This document shows, one piece after another, positions 511 through 47,312 of a stretch of 64,000 nucleotides of DNA (positions within the stretch are counted from its first letter, which is position 1; every line of letters starts with the position of its first letter). The stretch lies in IMG/VR virus record IMGVR_UViG_3300042808_000075; one strand, 5' to 3'. The DNA is from an uncultured virus (IMG/VR IMGVR_UViG_3300042808_000075). Lineage: Duplodnaviria > Heunggongvirae > Uroviricota > Caudoviricetes. The position numbers and the translations under genes are program-made. A model generated the notes under the pieces. The model ran no database searches. It was not told the DNA's origin and was given only the letters and a program-made list of their open reading frames with translations.

Positions 511-565
511 AAAAACTGGGAATGCAGATTTTAGCTATACAAAACTTTCTGCATTCCCAGTTTTT
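511..565. terminator. Long inverted repeat, likely bidirectional terminator
   Basis: AAAAACTGGGAATGCAGA...TCTGCATTCCCAGTTTTT, 18-bp perfect stem. Confidence 0.75.
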
Positions 566-611
566 ATTTATTATTTTTCTTTTTATATATAATTTCTATT
601 TATTATTTAAC

Positions 612-620
612 TTAGCGCAA
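612..620 (-). CDS. Minigene TTG-CGC-TAA (or GTG-started MIPLR from 629)
   Basis: Own promoter TTGACA(677-682)-17-TGATATAAT; leader AGAAAGGATGTGATTCCA. Confidence 0.5.
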   Translation of the reverse strand: MR

Positions 621-664
621 TGGAATCACATCCTTTCTTTTAGTTTATAATTAATTATATCACT

Positions 665-997
665 TTATTTACCTTTTGTCAAGTGAAAAAGAGAAGTCAT
701 ATGAAAATTGTTATAATTATCAATAATTTCTTGAAGCAGTGTTTTTTCAGACTCTAAATCATCAAGTCTGGCTTTTGCGTAAAGATATTTTTCTTTTGCG
801 CATAATTCTTGTTCAGCTTGGTTAAGCCTTGCATAATGTTTTTGTTTTTCCAATAAAGTTTGAACGCCGACAGCATTAACAATTTTGCAGAAAACATCCT
901 TATGTAAATCAAGGATAATATAAAGGTCGGTTAATTTATCAAGTTGTTCTTGTGTAATTTTATTTCTCAGCCGTTCGTTAGCTTCTTCAAGATTCAT
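665..997 (-). CDS. Hypothetical protein
   Basis: 110 aa ORF, AAGGAGG RBS. Confidence 0.8.
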   Translation of the reverse strand: MNLEEANERLRNKITQEQLDKLTDLYIILDLHKDVFCKIVNAVGVQTLLEKQKHYARLNQAEQELCAKEKYLYAKARLDDLESEKTLLQEIIDNYNNFHMTSLFHLTKGK

Positions 998-2999: not shown

Positions 3000-3106
3000 T
3001 ATTTATTACCGCCCTTTCATTTACCTTATGATTAATTATAGCATTTTAATTTACATTTGTAAAGAAAAAATTAATAATATATAATTAATTAAATATTCTT
3101 ATAATT

Positions 3107-3144
3107 AAAGAAAGGCATCTCTCGGAATCAGACCCCCATCCTCT
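3107..3144 (-). ncRNA. Candidate small RNA, copy 1
   Basis: AGAGGATGGGGGTCTGATTCCGAGAGATGCC plus T-tract behind TTTACA(3174)-17-TATAAT(3151). Confidence 0.55.
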
Positions 3145-3215
3145 GATTTAATTATACTATATATATTTATATTTGTAAATAAAAAACCACCTTTTTATTA
3201 GGTGGTTTTAATGAT

Positions 3216-11334: not shown

Positions 11335-11388
11335 AAGAGGTATTTAACCTCTTTTTTTGTGTTTAATATTCAGAATATTCTTATAAAT

Positions 11389-11426
11389 AAAAAACGGCAT
11401 CCCTCCGAATCAGACCCCTATCATCT
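11389..11426 (-). ncRNA. Candidate small RNA, copy 2
   Basis: AGATGATAGGGGTCTGATTCGGAGGGATGCCG plus T-tract behind TTTACT-17-TATAAT. Confidence 0.55.
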
Positions 11427-16882: not shown

Positions 16883-17000
16883 TTATCTACTTCCTTTTTT
16901 GTTTTATTTTTACAATTCATTAGTAAAATAAAAACGGGGAAATAACCCCCGTTTTTAGTATCATTACATCTCATAATTTTTTCATATTTTGATTGATTTG

Positions 17001-17042
17001 CTACAGGAAAGGAATTTTCCCGAAGCGCAACAGTTTGCGCAT
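17001..17042 (-). CDS. 13-aa peptide MRKLLRFGKIPFL
   Basis: AAGGAG RBS, ATG..TAG. Confidence 0.7.
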   Translation of the reverse strand: MRKLLRFGKIPFL

Positions 17043-17120
17043 ATGTTTCATTCTCCTTTTTTGCATGATTGAAAATTTATTATCTCATATATCTCTATTT
17101 TTCATATTTAAATTGATTCG

Positions 17121-17162
17121 TCAGATAAATGGAATTTTACCAAGGCGTAACCGTTTGCGCAT
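17121..17162 (-). CDS. 13-aa peptide MRKRLRLGKIPFI
   Basis: AAGGAGG RBS, ATG..TGA; synonymous changes relative to the other copies. Confidence 0.7.
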   Translation of the reverse strand: MRKRLRLGKIPFI

Positions 17163-17237
17163 GTTTTGTCCTCCTTCTTTACTTGATTAAATTTTTCATC
17201 TCATATATCTCTATTTTTTCATATTTTGATTAATTCG

Positions 17238-17279
17238 CTACAGGAAAGGAATTTTCCCGAAGCGCAACAGTTTGCGCAT
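17238..17279 (-). CDS. 13-aa peptide MRKLLRFGKIPFL
   Basis: AAGGAG RBS, ATG..TAG. Confidence 0.7.
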   Translation of the reverse strand: MRKLLRFGKIPFL

Positions 17280-17379
17280 ATGTTTTCTCCTTTTCAATGA
17301 ATTTAATATTTTTTCTTGCAATTTGTTATTAAAGCAATTTTATTTTCGCTGTAAAAATCTCCTTTAACCCTTTACCTGA

Positions 17380-17412
17380 TTATTTTATGATGTAGCACAT
17401 GGTTTTGTGCAT
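17380..17412 (-). CDS. 10-aa peptide MHKTMCYIIK
   Basis: AGAAAGGTGGTGAT RBS just after the promoter at 17440-17468. Confidence 0.5.
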   Translation of the reverse strand: MHKTMCYIIK

Positions 17413-17482
17413 TTGCAATCACCACCTTTCTATATTTTAATTATATCATTTTTATTTAATTTTGTAAAGTTTTTTTTTATTT

Positions 17483-22883: not shown

Positions 22884-23053
22884 TTGTTATTACCATCCTT
22901 TTTATTTTTATTATACCATATTGCTTTACAAATGTCAACATTTTTATTTAAATTTAAAACATTGTTATAATTAAAGAAGCGCATTAATCAGATTTATATC
23001 CTTTATAATTATTATAACAAATACATATATATTTGTAAACAAAAACAACCTAA

Positions 23054-23908: not shown

Positions 23909-24014
23909 TTTTATTATCTCCTTTATTTTTATTTTATAATTAATTATAACATTTTAATTTAAATTTGTAAAGAAAAAATAACAATATAAATATTGTTAGA
24001 ATATTCTTATAATT

Positions 24015-24052
24015 AAAGAAAGGCATCTCTCGGAATCAGACCCCTATCCTCT
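24015..24052 (-). ncRNA. Candidate small RNA, copy 3
   Basis: AGAGGATAGGGGTCTGATTCCGAGAGATGCC behind TTTACA(24082)-17-TATAAT(24059). Confidence 0.55.
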
Positions 24053-24143
24053 GATTTAATTATACTATATGTATTGATGTTTGTAAAGAAAAATACACCA
24101 TGAAAGGTGTATTTTTTATAAATCTTTCAAAAATTAATAAAAT

Positions 24144-24225
24144 TGGTACAGGTGGAGGGATTCGAACCCTCAATCAATGAAGTGGATTTGTTTGTCAAAT
24201 TTTGTTCATGAAAGTCAACACCCAT
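24144..24225 (-). tRNA. Degenerate tRNA / tRNA-like element with intact T-arm, acceptor 3' strand and CCA
   Basis: GAGGGTTCGAATCCCTC CACCTGT A CCA; ATGGGTG at 24219-24225 can pair with CACCTGT. Confidence 0.5.
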
Positions 24226-26536: not shown

Positions 26537-26656
26537 TTACTCAACCTCTTTTCATCAATTTTACTTATTAAGTATAACATATATTCCCATATATGTAAAG
26601 TAAAATTTATCAAAAACTAAAAAACACCATGATTTTTATCATGGTGTTTTTATTAT

Positions 26657-26668
26657 TTAATAGCGCAA
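26657..26668 (-). CDS. Minigene TTG-CGC-TAT-TAA (or MIPLRY from 26677)
   Basis: Leader AGAAAGGATATGATTCCA, nearly identical to the 612 element. Confidence 0.5.
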   Translation of the reverse strand: MRY

Positions 26669-26699
26669 TGGAATCATATCCTTTCTTTAATTATTTATG

Positions 26700-26720
26700 T
26701 TATAATGTTACCTTCCGCAA
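26700..26720 (-). CDS. Minigene MRKVTL (TTG start)
   Basis: Leader AAAGGATTGATGCCA; promoter at ~26764-26792. Confidence 0.45.
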   Translation of the reverse strand: MRKVTL

Positions 26721-26806
26721 TGGCATCAATCCTTTACTGTTTAATGTATCTCTTTATGTTTTTATTATACTATACTTTTTTATATTTGTAAACATTTTTT
26801 ACAATA

Positions 26807-28777
26807 TCATTCGCTTTTTTCAATGACAATTAAACAGGTACTATCAGGAAGAACAACAGAATTATATTCACAATCAAAGAATTCTATTTTTTGATTCAAA
26901 TGTAGGTTATAACCATCTTGCAAATAATGTTGGTTAGTTATGATTTTAGCTGTTTGGCCTAATATAGTTTGGATAAAATTTTCATATTGAGCAGGTGTGA
27001 AATATCCAAATTGTTCCTGTACTTCATGAGTATATGATTGTTCGCCCCATGTATAGGTATAAAGAAATTCCATAGCATCATTAATATCCATTTTAACTTC
27101 ATTTAAGCCAGTGATTTCAAATTGAATATCTCTACCTTTAAAATCTTTTACATATTGTTTTAAAAAATCCAATCCTTCATCAGATTTAAATCTAATGATT
27201 CTTTTCTCTTTGCTATCGGTCATAATGCCATCACGGATAATAATTCTACCATTGTTGTTTAAAGCGTCAAATGCACTTTTTAATACATTTGCAATTGTAT
27301 CATGATTGAATTTTTTATTATCTAATTCTATATAAGAAAACAATTCATGGATAATAGAACAAAAGATAATAGTATCAACATTATCAATATATTTCTTTAA
27401 TTCAAACGCATTTCCTTGGATTACATTCCAAGTATGATTTTCTAATTCTTTTTTCTTATTGAGTTTTTCAATAACATTAGTAGAAATATCGATACCATAG
27501 ATATTTTTATTAGTTAGTGAAGATTCTAATTCATCCAATAAAACGCCACCGCCGGGGCCGATATCAACAATGGTATCACCAACAACATAATCAACAATTA
27601 CTTTTTTGTAATCTTTTGATTGATTCATGGTTTGCAAATAACTTTCTTCATTATGAAACCGATCAAATTGGTCTTTACGCAAATCAAACAAATCAAACAA
27701 AACAATGATAGCTTTATCATATTCAAGGCCAGATTTTTCAGCTTCAACACAAAACTCTATTAATTTTTCTCCTGCATTGGAAAATTCAAAATCAAATGAC
27801 AAGAATTTTCCTTCTTTAATGATTTTATGTTTAACATGAATATTATTGCTAGGGTTTTGTAAGTATTTTTCAATGATTCTTTTTTTGTAAATGTTGATTT
27901 TTTTAGTATGGTTATAATCATAATACAATTGTTTCATTAATGGTTCCAATGAAACATTTAATTCATCATTAATATCATTGGATATTAGCTTTAACACTTG
28001 AATAAATTGTGTGAAGTTAAAATCATATAATGCTGATTCTATATACCAGAAATTAACATTGTTAAATTTTTCTTCCAAAAAAGTCAAATCATTTGTTTTT
28101 GACAATTCGCTATTGAAATTTTCACCATTTTTAATAGATTTCTTTCTAAGATTTGACAGTCTTGTAATAAAGTCTTTTTTGGGTACACATTTATTTTCAA
28201 ATATGTATGCAATAATTTGCTGAAATTCGTTTTTAGAATTTTCCCATAGAACAGGAGAAACAGCAGATACAATACAATAATTTAAATAATACAATATTTT
28301 ACTTATATCACCATATTGCAATAAAACTGAATGAGTGTTAAGATTAGATTCTTCACCGCGAATGTATTGACCAATTAATCCATGAGTGGCAATTAAATCT
28401 TTACATAATTCGTCTGTTCTATGTTCAGAATAAATATTAGCCGATGCAGTATTATGGATATTTAAATTATATCCTTTTTTCTCCCATTGTTTACGTTGGT
28501 ATTGGTTGCCGCATTTTGCAACCTCAGACCAAATCAAAACTTCTTCAATAACATCAATAGTGTTTTGATCTAAAACATTAGCAATATTATTTAATACTTC
28601 TAATGTTTTTTTAACATAATTTAAAACACAATGATTATTTAATTCATTGAAAGAACTAATTCTTTCAATGTTATAATTGGTTTGTTCGGTTAAATATAAA
28701 AACTGTAACCATTTATTATTTTTCAATACAGATAAATCACCAGATTTAACCTGACTAATTAGCTTTAAAGATTGCAT
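26807..28777 (-). CDS. Large class I SAM-dependent methyltransferase with N-terminal helical/HD-like region
   Basis: IVDIGPGGG, GIDIS, SIIHELFSY and GRIIIRDG motifs. Confidence 0.85.
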   Translation of the reverse strand: MQSLKLISQVKSGDLSVLKNNKWLQFLYLTEQTNYNIERISSFNELNNHCVLNYVKKTLEVLNNIANVLDQNTIDVIEEVLIWSEVAKCGNQYQRKQWEKKGYNLNIHNTASANIYSEHRTDELCKDLIATHGLIGQYIRGEESNLNTHSVLLQYGDISKILYYLNYCIVSAVSPVLWENSKNEFQQIIAYIFENKCVPKKDFITRLSNLRKKSIKNGENFNSELSKTNDLTFLEEKFNNVNFWYIESALYDFNFTQFIQVLKLISNDINDELNVSLEPLMKQLYYDYNHTKKINIYKKRIIEKYLQNPSNNIHVKHKIIKEGKFLSFDFEFSNAGEKLIEFCVEAEKSGLEYDKAIIVLFDLFDLRKDQFDRFHNEESYLQTMNQSKDYKKVIVDYVVGDTIVDIGPGGGVLLDELESSLTNKNIYGIDISTNVIEKLNKKKELENHTWNVIQGNAFELKKYIDNVDTIIFCSIIHELFSYIELDNKKFNHDTIANVLKSAFDALNNNGRIIIRDGIMTDSKEKRIIRFKSDEGLDFLKQYVKDFKGRDIQFEITGLNEVKMDINDAMEFLYTYTWGEQSYTHEVQEQFGYFTPAQYENFIQTILGQTAKIITNQHYLQDGYNLHLNQKIEFFDCEYNSVVLPDSTCLIVIEKSE

Positions 28778-30733: not shown

Positions 30734-30856
30734 TTTGTTATCTCCTTTTTTATTTATATTATACCATATATATTAATGTTTTGTAAATCAGTTTTTATCA
30801 ATTCATTTTAATAAAATTTACTTGACAAATGTAAAACAATATAGTATAATAAAGAT

Positions 30857-30894
30857 AGAGGATGGGGGTCTGATTCCGAGGGATGCCTTTTTTT
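30857..30894 (+). ncRNA. Candidate small RNA, copy 4 (inverted)
   Basis: TTGACA(30822)-17-TATAAT(30845), then AGAGGATGGGGGTCTGATTCCGAGGGATGCCTTTTTTT. Confidence 0.6.
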
Positions 30895-30962
30895 ATTTAT
30901 AAGAATATTCTGCCATTTTGTTTTTACTTTACAAATGTATATTGCATGTGTTATAATCATAA

Positions 30963-32431: not shown

Positions 32432-33649
32432 TTATTTGATAAAAGGTTTGATTAATTTTGCTCTTTGTTCTCTTACAAAATTAGCAATTTGTTCATTCTT
32501 TAGATGTTCAGGAATATCAAACTTTGTGTTTCTAATTACAGTTGCCATAGCGTTAAGATTATGAACTAGCGGTTCTACATTGTTGCCACCATCAGCCAGC
32601 ATAATCAAAGCCAATCCTTCTGTTTTCAAAGGTGATCTATCAGCTTTAATAATCATATCTACTATTTTGCTAGGTTTTTTAGTTTGTACTTTCATGTGAA
32701 GTTCACAAGCAATCATGCCAGCTTTTAACCATTTATTTTGCAAAGTAAATTCTTTGTTCCATTTTATCAGTTCTTCAATACCTAAAACATCATGCCCGAT
32801 ATGACTAGGCCAAAGTTCTTTAGGTGTTGCAGTTTTGCCAATATCATGAATAAGTGCCGCAAAACGAATAGCTATATCATTGGTTTGCTTTGCTACTTCA
32901 TCCAAAACAATCATCGAATGATTGTATACATCACCTTCGGGATGAAATTTGATATTTTGATCGATGCCAATCATTTTTTGAATCGGAGGAAAGATATCAA
33001 GCAAATCAGCTTGTTTCAAAACATCAAAAAACAAACTAGGCTTTTTAGTATTTAGTGCTTTTTCCAATTCAGTTACAATTCTTTCTTTGGATTCCAATAA
33101 CAATTCTTCTTTAGTTTGTTTCATAAGGTCAATAGTTTTTTGTGATACAGAAAAACCAAATTGGCTTGCTTGTCTTGCCACTCTTAAAGAGCGCACAGGG
33201 TCATCCTTAAAGAATTCAGAAGTTGCATTGATGATTCTGTTTTCAATATCTGTTTTGCCATTGTAGGGGTCAATCAGCTCGTTAGACAGTACGTGAATAG
33301 CCATACTATTCATTGTAGTATCTCTTCTGAATAAATCATCATGAATATTGATAGAAGTATCAAAAGTTACTTCAAATCCTTTATAACCAGTGCTGGTTTT
33401 AATTTCGCGTCTAGCAAAAGCAATTTCACATTGTTTATTGTTTACTGATAAATTGAAAACAGGAAATGATTTACCTATCAATTCAGCGTTAGGAAAAATG
33501 CTTTGAAATTGTTCTTTGGTTAAACCAGTTACACAATAATCTTTATCTTTAGGTGTTTTATTTAAAAAAATATCTCTGACAGCACCACCAACAAGAAAAA
33601 ATTCGCCGCCATTTTTATTTATAATTTCTGCCATTTGTTTTTCATCCAT
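32432..33649 (-). CDS. cca: CCA-adding tRNA nucleotidyltransferase with HD domain
   Basis: VGGAVRD..DKD, DLFRRDTTMNSMA, DDPVRSLR, HPEGDV..H, IHDIGK. Confidence 0.9.
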   Translation of the reverse strand: MDEKQMAEIINKNGGEFFLVGGAVRDIFLNKTPKDKDYCVTGLTKEQFQSIFPNAELIGKSFPVFNLSVNNKQCEIAFARREIKTSTGYKGFEVTFDTSINIHDDLFRRDTTMNSMAIHVLSNELIDPYNGKTDIENRIINATSEFFKDDPVRSLRVARQASQFGFSVSQKTIDLMKQTKEELLLESKERIVTELEKALNTKKPSLFFDVLKQADLLDIFPPIQKMIGIDQNIKFHPEGDVYNHSMIVLDEVAKQTNDIAIRFAALIHDIGKTATPKELWPSHIGHDVLGIEELIKWNKEFTLQNKWLKAGMIACELHMKVQTKKPSKIVDMIIKADRSPLKTEGLALIMLADGGNNVEPLVHNLNAMATVIRNTKFDIPEHLKNEQIANFVREQRAKLIKPFIK

Positions 33650-37710: not shown

Positions 37711-38847
37711 TTATTTTACATGATAACCCATATCTTGCAAAATAGCTTTATCTAAATTGGTGATTTGCCGATTGTTGTAAAAGTTGTCAGAAGGATAAGC
37801 GGTTACGCTTAACATACCAAAGTTACCATCAATATGGCAGGAATCAAACATAGGCACAGCACCGCCATAAACCTTCATAGCGTTTTCACCAACAAAGTAA
37901 TACTTTCCATTGTTTTGTATACGATGATCTTCAAACGCAGTACCTTGACCAATACCTAATACATGTCCAATTTCATGTAAAGCAGTTAAGTAAATATCAC
38001 GGTCAGTTTGTGGTATTCTAGTTCCATTTTGTTGTTTACCGTTTTGATTAAATTCAATGTCACTGATAAAAGGTTGATAAGTGTCTTTGTTTTTTATTCT
38101 ATTTAACAATGTTGGGTCTGAACATTGCTGAATAGTACGTGAACGTGCATCATCATTGCCGATAAATGTTGTTGCAAAAATTTTAAAGTCATCAATAGTG
38201 TCATTTGTTGTTAATGTATGTGGTGTACTGTAATCATACCAAATCGCAGATGTTCCTGCTACTACAGGCGCAAAATCATCAGCAATAATACTTGCCCATT
38301 CATTTGCCGCACGTTGAAATGCATCTTTTCTTCCTTGTGTATAAAAACCAGTGCTGTCCAAACTATAATCCAATTGGATATTAAATTGATGTGGTGCAGG
38401 TTCGAAATCAGCACTCATAATACGATTGTTTTCATTGCCGGGAGCATACCAACCTTGTACAAACAATTGTTCACCAGTATTTAATTTGCAAATTAAATCA
38501 TTACCAGATTGAAGGAAAGAAAGTTCACTTGGTTTAACATTATAAAAATTGATTTTGTCTAAATTATTAGTTGAATCAGCTAAAATAACAGTGTCTTTTG
38601 TCCCATGTCCAAACCAGTATATATCAGCACCATTTCCACCTACAAGAGTATCCATTCCACAAGTACCAATAATACCGCCCCAAAGTTGATCATTTCCATT
38701 ACCACCGGAAAGTAAATTATTATTGTTATCACCAGCAATAATATCTACTCCACTTCCACCATATATCGTTGTTACCCCTTGGTATTTACTTAGGTCAATA
38801 AACTCCCCTTGTTCAACTGTATAACCGATTCCATTATTAATATTCAT
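37711..38847 (-). CDS. RTX calcium-binding repeat protein fused to a zinc metalloprotease domain
   Basis: GGSGVD, GGNGND and GGNGAD nonapeptide repeats; HEIGHVLGI; C-terminal LQDMGY. Confidence 0.85.
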   Translation of the reverse strand: MNINNGIGYTVEQGEFIDLSKYQGVTTIYGGSGVDIIAGDNNNNLLSGGNGNDQLWGGIIGTCGMDTLVGGNGADIYWFGHGTKDTVILADSTNNLDKINFYNVKPSELSFLQSGNDLICKLNTGEQLFVQGWYAPGNENNRIMSADFEPAPHQFNIQLDYSLDSTGFYTQGRKDAFQRAANEWASIIADDFAPVVAGTSAIWYDYSTPHTLTTNDTIDDFKIFATTFIGNDDARSRTIQQCSDPTLLNRIKNKDTYQPFISDIEFNQNGKQQNGTRIPQTDRDIYLTALHEIGHVLGIGQGTAFEDHRIQNNGKYYFVGENAMKVYGGAVPMFDSCHIDGNFGMLSVTAYPSDNFYNNRQITNLDKAILQDMGYHVK

Positions 38848-40797: not shown

Positions 40798-41985
40798 TCA
40801 CGAAGGAACAGATAATCTTACTTTATGCTTATGGAATAATTGTTTTAAATCTTCACGCAGATAAGGTAAAAAATAACTAGGTTTATCTTTCATTGCCACC
40901 AATATTTTTTCTTTGATATCTTGTTCGTTAGTGAATAATCTCAACGCTAGGTCGCAAATAAATGTTCCTTGGTGTGGTAACATTAACTTCATTACTGATA
41001 AATTTTCTACAACCAATTTTCTGTCTTTTTCTTTTTTGATTAGATCATAAACAATATGACTTTGATGTAATATATATAAATAGTAATTATTGATTAATTC
41101 TTCCGATTCATTAAGTAAATTAACTATATTGGTTAATTTAAGTTCATTGGCATATGAAATAGTATCATCTTTGTTTTGGTTAACAATTAGATCATAAACA
41201 ACATTATGATTTAATTGTGTAACGATTTTGTGTCTATTTAAATACCAAAGTGTTTTTATTTTATATCTTTCGCCATTTTTCATAACAACAACAACACCTT
41301 CATGGTTTTCCCAATTGTTATGCAAATCATAAAAGAAATCATGCATGTTGGTATCAACATTGATTTCATCAATTTTTAATTGGGTAGGGAAATCTTTAAT
41401 CAAAGAAATATCTAGATATTCACCTGTTTTAATATGTCTAATTGCAATCAATTTTAAGGTAGGTATTTGATAGTTAATTACAATTCGACAATCAGTGCTT
41501 GAATATTCAAAAATAGGAGTATACCCTTTATTAATATAGTTTTTACAAAAATTAATAAAATCATTGTAAAAATGTTGTTGTTTTATCCAATCATTAAATC
41601 TGGTTACTACTGATGAAAAAGGTGAAGTTTTTGTTTTAAAATAAACAATATCATTTAACATAAAAGGGGTAATCATACTTCCATCCATTTTTTCCAAAGT
41701 TTGAAGAACATTTTCCCATTGAATACTTTCAAATTGTGTTTCTTCTCTTTCGTTAACATTAAAAAACTTATGAAAAGGTCGGCAAATACATTCACCTGTA
41801 TCCATACGAAAAGTAATCCCACGTGCTTCTTTTGCCATATCAGAATCAAAAGTAGTAGGAAATTGGACTAAATAACTAATTACTCCAATATTAATATTAT
41901 CAACAATATGTTCAATAATATTAATTTCTTCTTTATTTTTTAAAATATCTTCAAATTGTTTAATGTTTGTAATAATAGGAAACAT
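40798..41985 (-). CDS. T4 Rnl1-like RNA ligase
   Basis: EARGITF, RPFHKFFNVNE, motif I EKMDGS, IFEY, EGVVV, YKIKT. Confidence 0.9.
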   Translation of the reverse strand: MFPIITNIKQFEDILKNKEEINIIEHIVDNINIGVISYLVQFPTTFDSDMAKEARGITFRMDTGECICRPFHKFFNVNEREETQFESIQWENVLQTLEKMDGSMITPFMLNDIVYFKTKTSPFSSVVTRFNDWIKQQHFYNDFINFCKNYINKGYTPIFEYSSTDCRIVINYQIPTLKLIAIRHIKTGEYLDISLIKDFPTQLKIDEINVDTNMHDFFYDLHNNWENHEGVVVVMKNGERYKIKTLWYLNRHKIVTQLNHNVVYDLIVNQNKDDTISYANELKLTNIVNLLNESEELINNYYLYILHQSHIVYDLIKKEKDRKLVVENLSVMKLMLPHQGTFICDLALRLFTNEQDIKEKILVAMKDKPSYFLPYLREDLKQLFHKHKVRLSVPS

Positions 41986-45238: not shown

Positions 45239-46180
45239 TTAAATAAACTTTAACAATTGATTGGCTAAATGACCGCCAATATTATAAACAATTTGTAAAT
45301 CTTTTTTTTCTAACAATTTAAGTTCATTTTCGTAATCAATTTCAAAATCTTTTTTTGCATCATCCATGATAAAAGAGATATATTCTTTCATTTGTGCTTT
45401 ATTATTAATAGTACCAATTTTGCTAAAAGCACTGTTAATACGGTTTTCGTTTAAATATGTTTTAAAAACACTGTTTAATTGGATTAAATTTTCATCGATT
45501 TCGATAATAACTTTTTCTTTTATTTTTTCTTCAAATTTACTATGTTTAATTTTTAAAACAATATTTTTCCCCCCGTTATTAATCAGCCAATTATCAAAAG
45601 GCTTTACCACTACACCTTCGGCAAAATTATTTCCCATAGGGTTGAAGGTAGTTATAAAAACCGGATTAAATTTAACAGCTTCATCAATACCTTTAACAAT
45701 GGCTAACAATTTTACCAACATGTTTTCAAATCCATTATCGCAGAAAAATTTTCGATATTGTTTTGGTGATTGCATAACATCATTCACTTTAAATCCAATA
45801 ATACGCATAGCTGATTGATTAGATTGATTAAAATACTTAATGCCTTTACTTAATTTACCACCAAACAATTCAAAATACGTTGTTAATTTAACATTATTAT
45901 CAATAGAATATTGTTTTAAAAAATCAAATAATTGTTTTTCTTCTGGTTGTTCAATGGTTTGCCAAAGTGAAAAAAATGGTGTATCAGGCGTTAAAACCAT
46001 TTCACGACTAAAAAATTCAATTTCACCATTTTGAACAGTTGCTTGAATATTTGCTCCATGCATTTTTTCTTCAATAGCAAATTCAATGTCAATTAATTGG
46101 GGAAATTCGTTTTTGAAAATTTGCAATTGATTTTTATTATCAATTCGTACAATTGAAGGAAATGAATCATGATTAGTCAT
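45239..46180 (-). CDS. Rnl2-family RNA ligase
   Basis: Motif I EEKMHGAN, FELFGG, AEGVVVKP, LKIK..KFEE, YLNENRI.S..SKIG. Confidence 0.88.
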   Translation of the reverse strand: MTNHDSFPSIVRIDNKNQLQIFKNEFPQLIDIEFAIEEKMHGANIQATVQNGEIEFFSREMVLTPDTPFFSLWQTIEQPEEKQLFDFLKQYSIDNNVKLTTYFELFGGKLSKGIKYFNQSNQSAMRIIGFKVNDVMQSPKQYRKFFCDNGFENMLVKLLAIVKGIDEAVKFNPVFITTFNPMGNNFAEGVVVKPFDNWLINNGGKNIVLKIKHSKFEEKIKEKVIIEIDENLIQLNSVFKTYLNENRINSAFSKIGTINNKAQMKEYISFIMDDAKKDFEIDYENELKLLEKKDLQIVYNIGGHLANQLLKFI

Positions 46181-47035: not shown

Positions 47036-47169
47036 TTAATAGCCTCCATTTTTATATTTATAACTTCACATTTTTAAAAACAAAAAAAGAAAAGCACTTC
47101 TAGCTTTTCTTTTTATTTTAATATAATTTTATCACAATGTCAATATGTGTACTTTATAAATCAAGGTAG

Positions 47170-47184
47170 CTAATGCCAATGCAT
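47170..47184 (-). CDS. Minigene MHWH
   Basis: AAGGAGG, 8 nt spacer, ATG CAT TGG CAT TAG. Confidence 0.45.
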   Translation of the reverse strand: MHWH

Positions 47185-47221
47185 ATACATTTCCTCCTTT
47201 TTATTATATATGTTTTTTTAT

Positions 47222-47230
47222 CTACTGCAA
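47222..47230 (-). CDS. Minigene TTG-CAG-TAG
   Basis: Leader AGAAAGAAGGAGATTCCA; promoter TTTACA-17-TGATACAAT. Confidence 0.45.
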   Translation of the reverse strand: MQ

Positions 47231-47312
47231 TGGAATCTCCTTCTTTCTTTTGTTTATTTTCTATATCTTTATTGTATCATATGTGTTTTATTTTGTAAAT
47301 GTTTTTTTAATT

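Follow-up and report, generated by a model that had tools for sequence, protein, structure and literature searches.

We identified, on the minus strand of an uncultured Caudoviricetes genome (IMG/VR record IMGVR_UViG_3300042808_000075; the whole 64,000-nucleotide stretch analysed is hereafter the window), a promoter-driven module in which a very strong Shine-Dalgarno sequence (SD) is followed by a TTG start, an almost immediate stop and a hairpin. In our judgement there is an even chance that this module, at position 620, is a STAB-SD-type ribosome-parking barrier to which a minigene has been added. Its role is probably that of an RNA-stabilising 'cap' and not of a toxin that drains tRNA. Its small size puts it below the reach of gene callers, and Rfam has no model for it, but it reappears in host leaders and in unrelated phages.

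Three cassettes in a phage early region

The window has a G+C content of 27% and almost all of its genes on the minus strand, most of them served by a TTTACA-17-TATAAT promoter and an AAAGGAG site of their own; its sequence looks like an early region from a large Firmicute-infecting phage. Counted towards this assignment was gene 1523-1726, which by BLAST shares 72-75% nucleotide identity with hypothetical genes of Bacillus phages. Scanning 43 window proteins with Pfam gave, among other matches, ArdC, two RNA ligases, a CCA/poly(A)-type enzyme and GP88. The genetic code is standard, an alternative code being ruled out because genes end at TAA, TAG and TGA alike. Searches with gene 665-997 as query, together with further searches, recovered no close relative of the phage, the best match showing 44% identity.

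The cassette at 620 runs from promoter to hairpin as follows:

654..682, minus strand: sigma-A/70 consensus promoter, TTGACA at 682-677, 17-nt spacer, TATAAT at 659-654 (12/12)
621..638, minus strand: super-SD with NCCA spacer, AGAAAGGATGTGATTCCA, optimally spaced from the TTG
612..620, minus strand: minigene TTG-CGC-TAA (fMet-Arg), as read from the sequence
566..611, minus strand: A-rich stretch, unstructured in fold analysis, with no Rfam match and no recognisable cargo
511..565, minus strand: hairpin, a perfect 18-bp inverted repeat (511-528/548-565) with a U run at its end (fold z = -5.85)

An earlier note on this DNA had placed a promoter, SD, two-codon minigene and hairpin here, and re-reading of the sequence confirmed all four. 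The promoter has an extended -10 TG (662-661) and is one of the five that reach 12/12 among the 62 minus-strand window promoters scoring at least 11/12. It overlaps the last codons of the upstream gene 665-997 and no terminator-like hairpin lies between, which suggests that the hairpin at 511-565 is likely to be the terminator of the upstream genes as well as of the cassette. The note's statement that no other gene precedes this hairpin also stands: we found no further SD-led ORF between the minigene and 511-565, and a 7-codon ATG ORF within the hairpin is without a spaced SD. Rfam gave no match at gathering score anywhere in the window, and over the cassettes none by e-value either.

Related elements had been proposed at 26657, 26700 and 47222. 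These are real, and all are SD-led TTG mini-ORFs belonging to two further cassettes:

26764..26792, minus strand: promoter of the second cassette, TTTACA-17-TATAAT, from the sequence
26700..26736, minus strand: SD-TGCCA-TTG mini-ORF of six codons (MRKVTL), the TTG ORF spanning 26720-26700
26657..26686, minus strand: SD-TTCCA-TTG mini-ORF of three codons (MRY), TTG-CGC-TAT-TAA at 26668-26657
26620..26651, minus strand: terminator-like hairpin, immediately 3' of the second cassette's last stop codon
47271..47299, minus strand: promoter of the third cassette, TTTACA-17-TACAAT, with TG, read directly
47222..47248, minus strand: SD-TTCCA-TTG mini-ORF of two codons (MQ), TTG-CAG-TAG at 47230-47222
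47170..47204, minus strand: second SD and an ATG mini-ORF of four codons (MHWH; ORF 47184-47170), the fifth mini-ORF of the window
47083..47114, minus strand: terminator-like hairpin of the third cassette, from fold analysis

The three cassettes hold four SD-NCCR-TTG mini-ORFs (620, 26720, 26668 and 47230), all of six codons or fewer, whose second codons are CGC (twice), CGG and CAG. Two of the cassettes are tandem, with mini-ORF starts 52 and 46 nt apart. Each cassette ends in a terminator-like hairpin, and none separates it from its upstream gene. The copy at 26668 is nearest to the unit at 620: an indel of 2 nt separates them at the stop, and the likeness continues beyond it, which indicates that the short unit itself was duplicated. 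No cargo is identifiable in the window cassettes, where, ahead of the terminator, the 620 copy leaves 46 A-rich bases and the 26657 copy about 5. The motif matches the window three times against 0.25 expected. Moreover, SD-NCCR-TTG ORFs of six codons or fewer, a pattern set post hoc, occur four times against a mean of 0.005 and a maximum of 1 in 200 dinucleotide shuffles.

The earlier note had also described the leader as complementary to the 16S rRNA 3' end well beyond a normal SD. The pairing is indeed strong: 8 bp, one mismatch, 5 bp, a bulge and 3 more bp give -17.2 kcal/mol with the anti-SD sequence that we assume for the host, and the site ranks second in strength among 55 promoter-proximal RBSs in the window. 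It extends as far as the bases immediately 3' of helix 45, which stays closed in a co-fold with an assumed rRNA sequence, and invasion of that helix is ruled out on this ground. The base before CC in the spacer varies, as expected of a bulge in the 16S-tail duplex. A conserved GGA/UCC or GNRA hairpin was likewise rejected, since the partner base varies. The same SD site starts ordinary genes in 6 of 13 host matches and at locus L057. The B. subtilis hbs SD forms 10 Watson-Crick and 2 G-U pairs according to PMC5737220. The SD at 620 is strong and comparable to that of hbs, and lies within the range of known SDs; with ordinary genes sharing the site and helix 45 shut, 'well beyond' overstates the case.

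Several other features of the window were recorded. At 16900-17470 (minus strand) lie a promoter, the window's strongest SD, a 10-codon ORF (MHKTMCYIIK), three repeats of ~118 nt, in each of which there are an RBS and a cationic ORF of 13 residues (MRKLLRFGKIPFL twice, MRKRLRLGKIPFI), and then a terminator-like hairpin. A second promoter-proximal family (3070-3145, 11350-11425, 23980-24053 and 22950-23010 on the minus strand, 30855-30930 on the plus strand) begins at the predicted transcription start and conserves ~50 nt, with a GGGGTCTGATTC core in four of the five units; it has partial similarity to the minigene motif, and its one IMG/VR match looks like chance. Three gene pairs of 78-88% identity (3216-4247/9551-10579, 54934-55236/56023-56343 and 38940-39770/39872-40726) are recent duplicates, which shows active module duplication in the early region. 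An RTX-repeat-like protein (37711-38847, a weak match below cut-off), two RNA ligases (40798-41985 and 45239-46180), a CCA/poly(A)-type enzyme with an HD domain (32432-33649) and a 656-aa protein with a methyltransferase domain (26807-28777) possibly form a counter-defence set for RNA repair. Three iteron-like repeats at 277-463 (AAAACACCCTAGAAAAA core), spaced 66 and 83 nt from one another and accompanied by G-rich runs, lie close to the contig end and are a possible origin or genome terminus. Lastly, a tRNA-like element at 24144-24223 (minus strand) has a T-arm, an acceptor-like stem and a CCA end; it is not called by ARAGORN and gives a weak tmRNA-model match (E 0.001, below gathering score).

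Recurrence in mobile elements, viruses and bacterial leaders

In IMG/VR the exact motif occurs at 12 loci on 8 contigs, every one of them in the leader of a CRISPR mini-array and all reading TTG-CAG-TAA or TTG-CGG-TAA. From the form of repeat and leader we take these mini-arrays to be type I-C. Metagenomes yielded 99 motif matches, comprising 66 of the mini-array-leader kind, two that are the window's own sequence (L210 and L248), one four-codon variant and 30 coding or chance matches. One record, G001, is a gut mobile element of 346 kb in which 12 CRISPR mini-arrays with leaders are dispersed, along with several lone repeats (L004, L006, L007, L012, L054-L060, L283-L289); most of its leaders contain an SD-minigene and then a short inverted repeat with compensating changes. 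Nine of ten near matches in this record are leaders ~110 nt before a type I-C-like mini-array, and the tenth has ATG and starts a long gene. Across the array leaders the spacer bases vary and the SD, spacing, TTG and TAA are fixed, with a synonymous CAG/CAA change in the minigene. At seven further repeat sites, two leaders keep the SD and read CTA-TAG-TAA, a loss of the start that is expected if the SD is what matters; one site has a different SD-like sequence without a start, one has a short leader and three are lone repeats. Terminase_6N had no match in G001-G005, and we therefore term these mobile elements rather than proven phages.

Two degenerate patterns, both of which include CCR-TTG by construction, were searched among viral loci. 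The AAAGGATRTGRTTCCR-TTG pattern opens ORFs of four codons or fewer at 27 of 32 loci (5/8 lineages), and the short-ORF lineages include a tandem pair 5' of tRNA genes. In one prophage lineage with this pattern the module lies upstream of what is, by our own reading of the protein, a probable capsid scaffold gene. The version with GGGGG opens ORFs of five codons or fewer at 17 of 29 loci (5/15 lineages), 12 of the 17 being start-stop; of the other lineages, five carry real genes and five look like chance. At L325:1-760, a long, apparently non-coding stretch places two tandem SD-minigenes 5' of a phage tRNA cluster, and Rfam matched only the tRNAs there. A control pattern with ATG gave 17 loci in 7 groups: three are in-frame coding chance matches, and four others, all intergenic, open ORFs of 5, 8, 17 and 68 codons, which shows that mini-ORFs are not restricted to TTG. 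A short-query BLAST against phages and plasmids returned nothing significant, and the 80 loci examined among the matches listed by a loose promoter-SD-TTG-stop scan were all chance. Outside the window, codon 2 is Gly in 10 of 19 hand-picked representatives.

Across 185,579 species genomes the exact motif matched nine times, eight of these being coding or chance and the ninth (L039) an intergenic TTG-CAG-TAA in a prophage-like region. Searching 401 genomes for the motif added a single new match, which lies immediately 5' of a glmS ribozyme. We assembled a set of glmS leaders of Bacillota genomes (L349-L398) from all 20 loci of 61 relatives of genome G364 and the 30 best of 80 phylum-wide matches, with 30 of 34 SAM riboswitch loci as control. 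A super-SD, defined as -12 kcal/mol or better within 80 nt upstream of the ribozyme and counted with or without a start, is present in 34/50 glmS leaders versus 0/30 SAM loci, 0/80 antisense and 54/870 intergenic windows. Divided by source, the counts are 14/20 for the G364 relatives, 20/30 phylum-wide and 0/30 for SAM (Fisher p = 1e-10), although such p-values overstate independence because the glmS loci are orthologues and not separate events. All of these super-SDs lie upstream of the ribozyme cleavage site and are sometimes doubled. The fuller combination of strong SD, TTG and at most five codons was found in 9/20 leaders of the G364 relatives, 1/30 phylum-wide and 0/30 SAM. CCA stands before the start in 8 of 10 TTG-bearing glmS leaders, and CCR in 1 of 147 ordinary long genes.

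In five genomes picked for carrying the motif, it is present at glmS a single time each and at one chance site besides; none of the five has the ATG form. Phylum-wide the motif is hardly in excess, at 13 of 301 genomes versus 11 with a reversed-pattern control. These 13 matches comprise six starts of long ORFs, two chance sites and five mini-ORFs of 2-11 codons, three of which precede a gene's own RBS by ~70 nt. By our own reading, three of the six long ORFs are presumably metK, HPr and mnmA. Host CRISPR leaders contain the module in only 1/25 cases (30 of 44 cas2 loci examined), which rules it out as a general host CRISPR-leader feature. In the literature searched, which left most subscription papers outside it, we found no account of an orphan SD or a minigene that precedes glmS ribozymes, is carried on mobile CRISPR mini-arrays or forms stand-alone RNAs in phages. 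The orphan super-SD at glmS leaders is the most testable of these results and suggests an unnoticed part of the switch, in that cleavage may remove a ribosome barrier besides making a 5'-OH end.

A proposed ribosome barrier and its rivals

If the module is a STAB-SD-type barrier, its near-maximal SD would load a ribosome, which the TTG and almost immediate stop would hold at or near the spot, adding stability to the initiation complex with no protein made; the peptide and the identity of the codon would be incidental. The parked ribosome would form a 5' barrier to the 5'-3' exonuclease RNase J1, if the phage's host has that enzyme; in Firmicutes a bound ribosome is known to act in this way at cry3A and hbs. 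In B. subtilis a ribosome bound at a strong SD, whether or not a start codon is present, blocks RNase J1 and so stabilises the downstream RNA, as PMC5737220, PMC4113751 and PMC3997798 describe. Without its AUG, hbs gave slightly less of the protected species, which the authors ascribe to the missing initiator tRNA (PMC5737220). Moreover, RBS mutations shortened the half-life of phage SP82 mRNA, and glmS self-cleavage exposes the mRNA to RNase J1, as stated in PMC7509114 and PMC3997798, respectively.

The module was observed 5' of glmS ribozymes, mini-arrays, a tRNA cluster and downstream genes. That outside the window it mostly lies 5' of another RNA points to a cis stabiliser, which would protect worthwhile RNA: at the glmS cut site, the CRISPR mini-arrays, the tRNA cluster or a downstream gene's RBS. 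In the phage, the three cassettes, each with its own promoter, stand just before the terminator that would close an early transcription unit. Their products would be stable RNAs of ~120-180 nt, with one or two ribosomes as cap and a hairpin at the 3' end, arising both from the cassette's own promoter and as a remnant of the 5'-3' decay of upstream mRNA. The variation of codon 2 and the occasional loss of the start with the SD kept fit a STAB-SD-type barrier and speak against sequestration of Arg-tRNA. Because the window copies have no recognisable cargo, they may instead be vestigial gene slots or act as a ribosome sink.

The earlier note had read the element as one of a minigene or ribosome-decoy family that sequesters 30S subunits or specific tRNAs, here Arg. 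Its family holds, as SD-led minigenes are repeated, recur in unrelated phages and have ribosome binding as their likely point; sequestration of Arg-tRNA, however, is not supported, given a variable second codon, no rare-codon or proline pair, a TTG start and a phage that uses such codons itself (CGT, CGC and CGA make up 138 of its 375 Arg codons). A wider form of the idea, in which an abundant, end-protected RNA acts in trans as a translation sink or as an RNA toxin like lambda bar or CreT and ties up ribosomes, initiation factors or tRNA at host take-over, is in our estimate a minority possibility. Its SD, start, mini-ORF and hairpin are laid out as in CreT, the promoter is among the window's strongest and the RBS is second strongest, and tandem units 46-52 nt apart stand cargo-free in the early region. 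The codon evidence above bears against this form too, however, and the phage itself needs ribosomes and CGN-reading tRNA. The module is also found in host glmS leaders, where toxicity is hard to tolerate, and CreT toxicity is weakest with a TTG start in PMC10097628 and PMC8501985. Stand-alone phage copies offer a clean system for asking whether ribosome-parking RNAs act in trans.

We think it unlikely that the cassettes are vestigial gene slots, that is, promoter-RBS-TTG modules whose gene was deleted and which were then copied neutrally as early-region cassettes were shuffled. Real genes do start from the same RBS and nearly every window gene has its own promoter module; all four window copies, however, are of six codons or fewer with no reading-frame remnant ahead of the terminators, the unit that was duplicated (620 and 26668, alike past the stop) is the short one, and the short form has become fixed across many lineages that are unrelated. 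That the tiny peptides (MR, MRY, MRKVTL, MQ and MHWH) are themselves the products, in the manner of the ORFs of 10 and 13 residues at 17000-17420, seems very improbable: the repeated 13-aa ORFs beginning MRK and the synonymous change in G001 favour it, but neither length nor sequence is conserved (from start-stop up to six codons), a frameshift is tolerated between the two closest copies, and two G001 leaders have lost the start. The least probable of these alternatives is that the motif binds a protein, either as a CsrA-like GGA motif or as a site on DNA, or else acts as an antisense RNA by invading helix 45 of 16S rRNA. Conservation does reach the CCR beside the start, as the counts for glmS leaders and long genes show; against this, helix 45 is closed in the co-fold, no GGA/UCC hairpin is conserved, and the base before CC varies like a bulge in the 16S-tail duplex.

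Returning to the ribosome barrier, a joint reading may be offered tentatively, as a possibility that we would not favour: a portable Firmicute super-SD-TTG cap would be carried on glmS mRNA and CRISPR mini-arrays, and the phage version would be a cargo-free RNA that holds host ribosomes or decay machinery at take-over. Self-cleavage of glmS would then shed the parked ribosome and leave the mRNA open to RNase J1.

Comparison with known systems

The early regions of T4-like phages contain PeSL-type promoter cassettes, dozens of repeated promoter-RBS modules with one for each small gene. The module differs in holding no gene, and its form of RBS is used by no long gene of the window. The bar minigene of phage lambda reads AUG-AUA-UAA. 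It shares with the module a phage-encoded two-codon ORF and an efficient RBS, whereas the start of the module is TTG and not ATG. Lambda bar acts through a build-up of peptidyl-tRNA and depletion of one tRNA, as described in PMC2490762; its sense codon is fixed and the tRNA sequestered, whereas in the module the codon varies and is one that the phage uses.

CreT (Haloarcula, Halobacterium, Acinetobacter and P. aeruginosa) and the module have in common a promoter, SD, start, mini-ORF and downstream hairpin, the CreT layout being taken from PMC8501985, PMC10097628 and bioRxiv 10.64898/2026.06.02.729485. CreT has consecutive rare or proline codons; the module, in contrast, has a single CGC at 620, a second codon that is not conserved and a weak TTG start. 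A CreA guide, CRISPR or cas gene was sought in the window, with no CRISPR-like family among the 20 largest repeat families shown, no Rfam match and, in a scan of 43 proteins, no Cas domain.

STAB-SDs (B. thuringiensis cry3A, the B. subtilis hbs SD and the phage SP82 RBS) resemble the module in being very strong SDs that head no real protein gene, found in Firmicutes and their phages either close to a 5' end or upstream of the true RBS by 70-150 nt. Moreover, some copies of the module can do without a start codon. A STAB-SD directs no initiation, according to PMC4113751, whereas in the module a TTG and an ORF of 1-6 codons usually follow, after an NCCR spacer. Measured against the strict cry3A type, with no initiation at the SD, the window has a TTG at optimal spacing and some relatives have no start at all. 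The window copies also stand alone before a terminator and cargo-free, unlike STAB-SD. The module is a variant of STAB-SD rather than a strict member.
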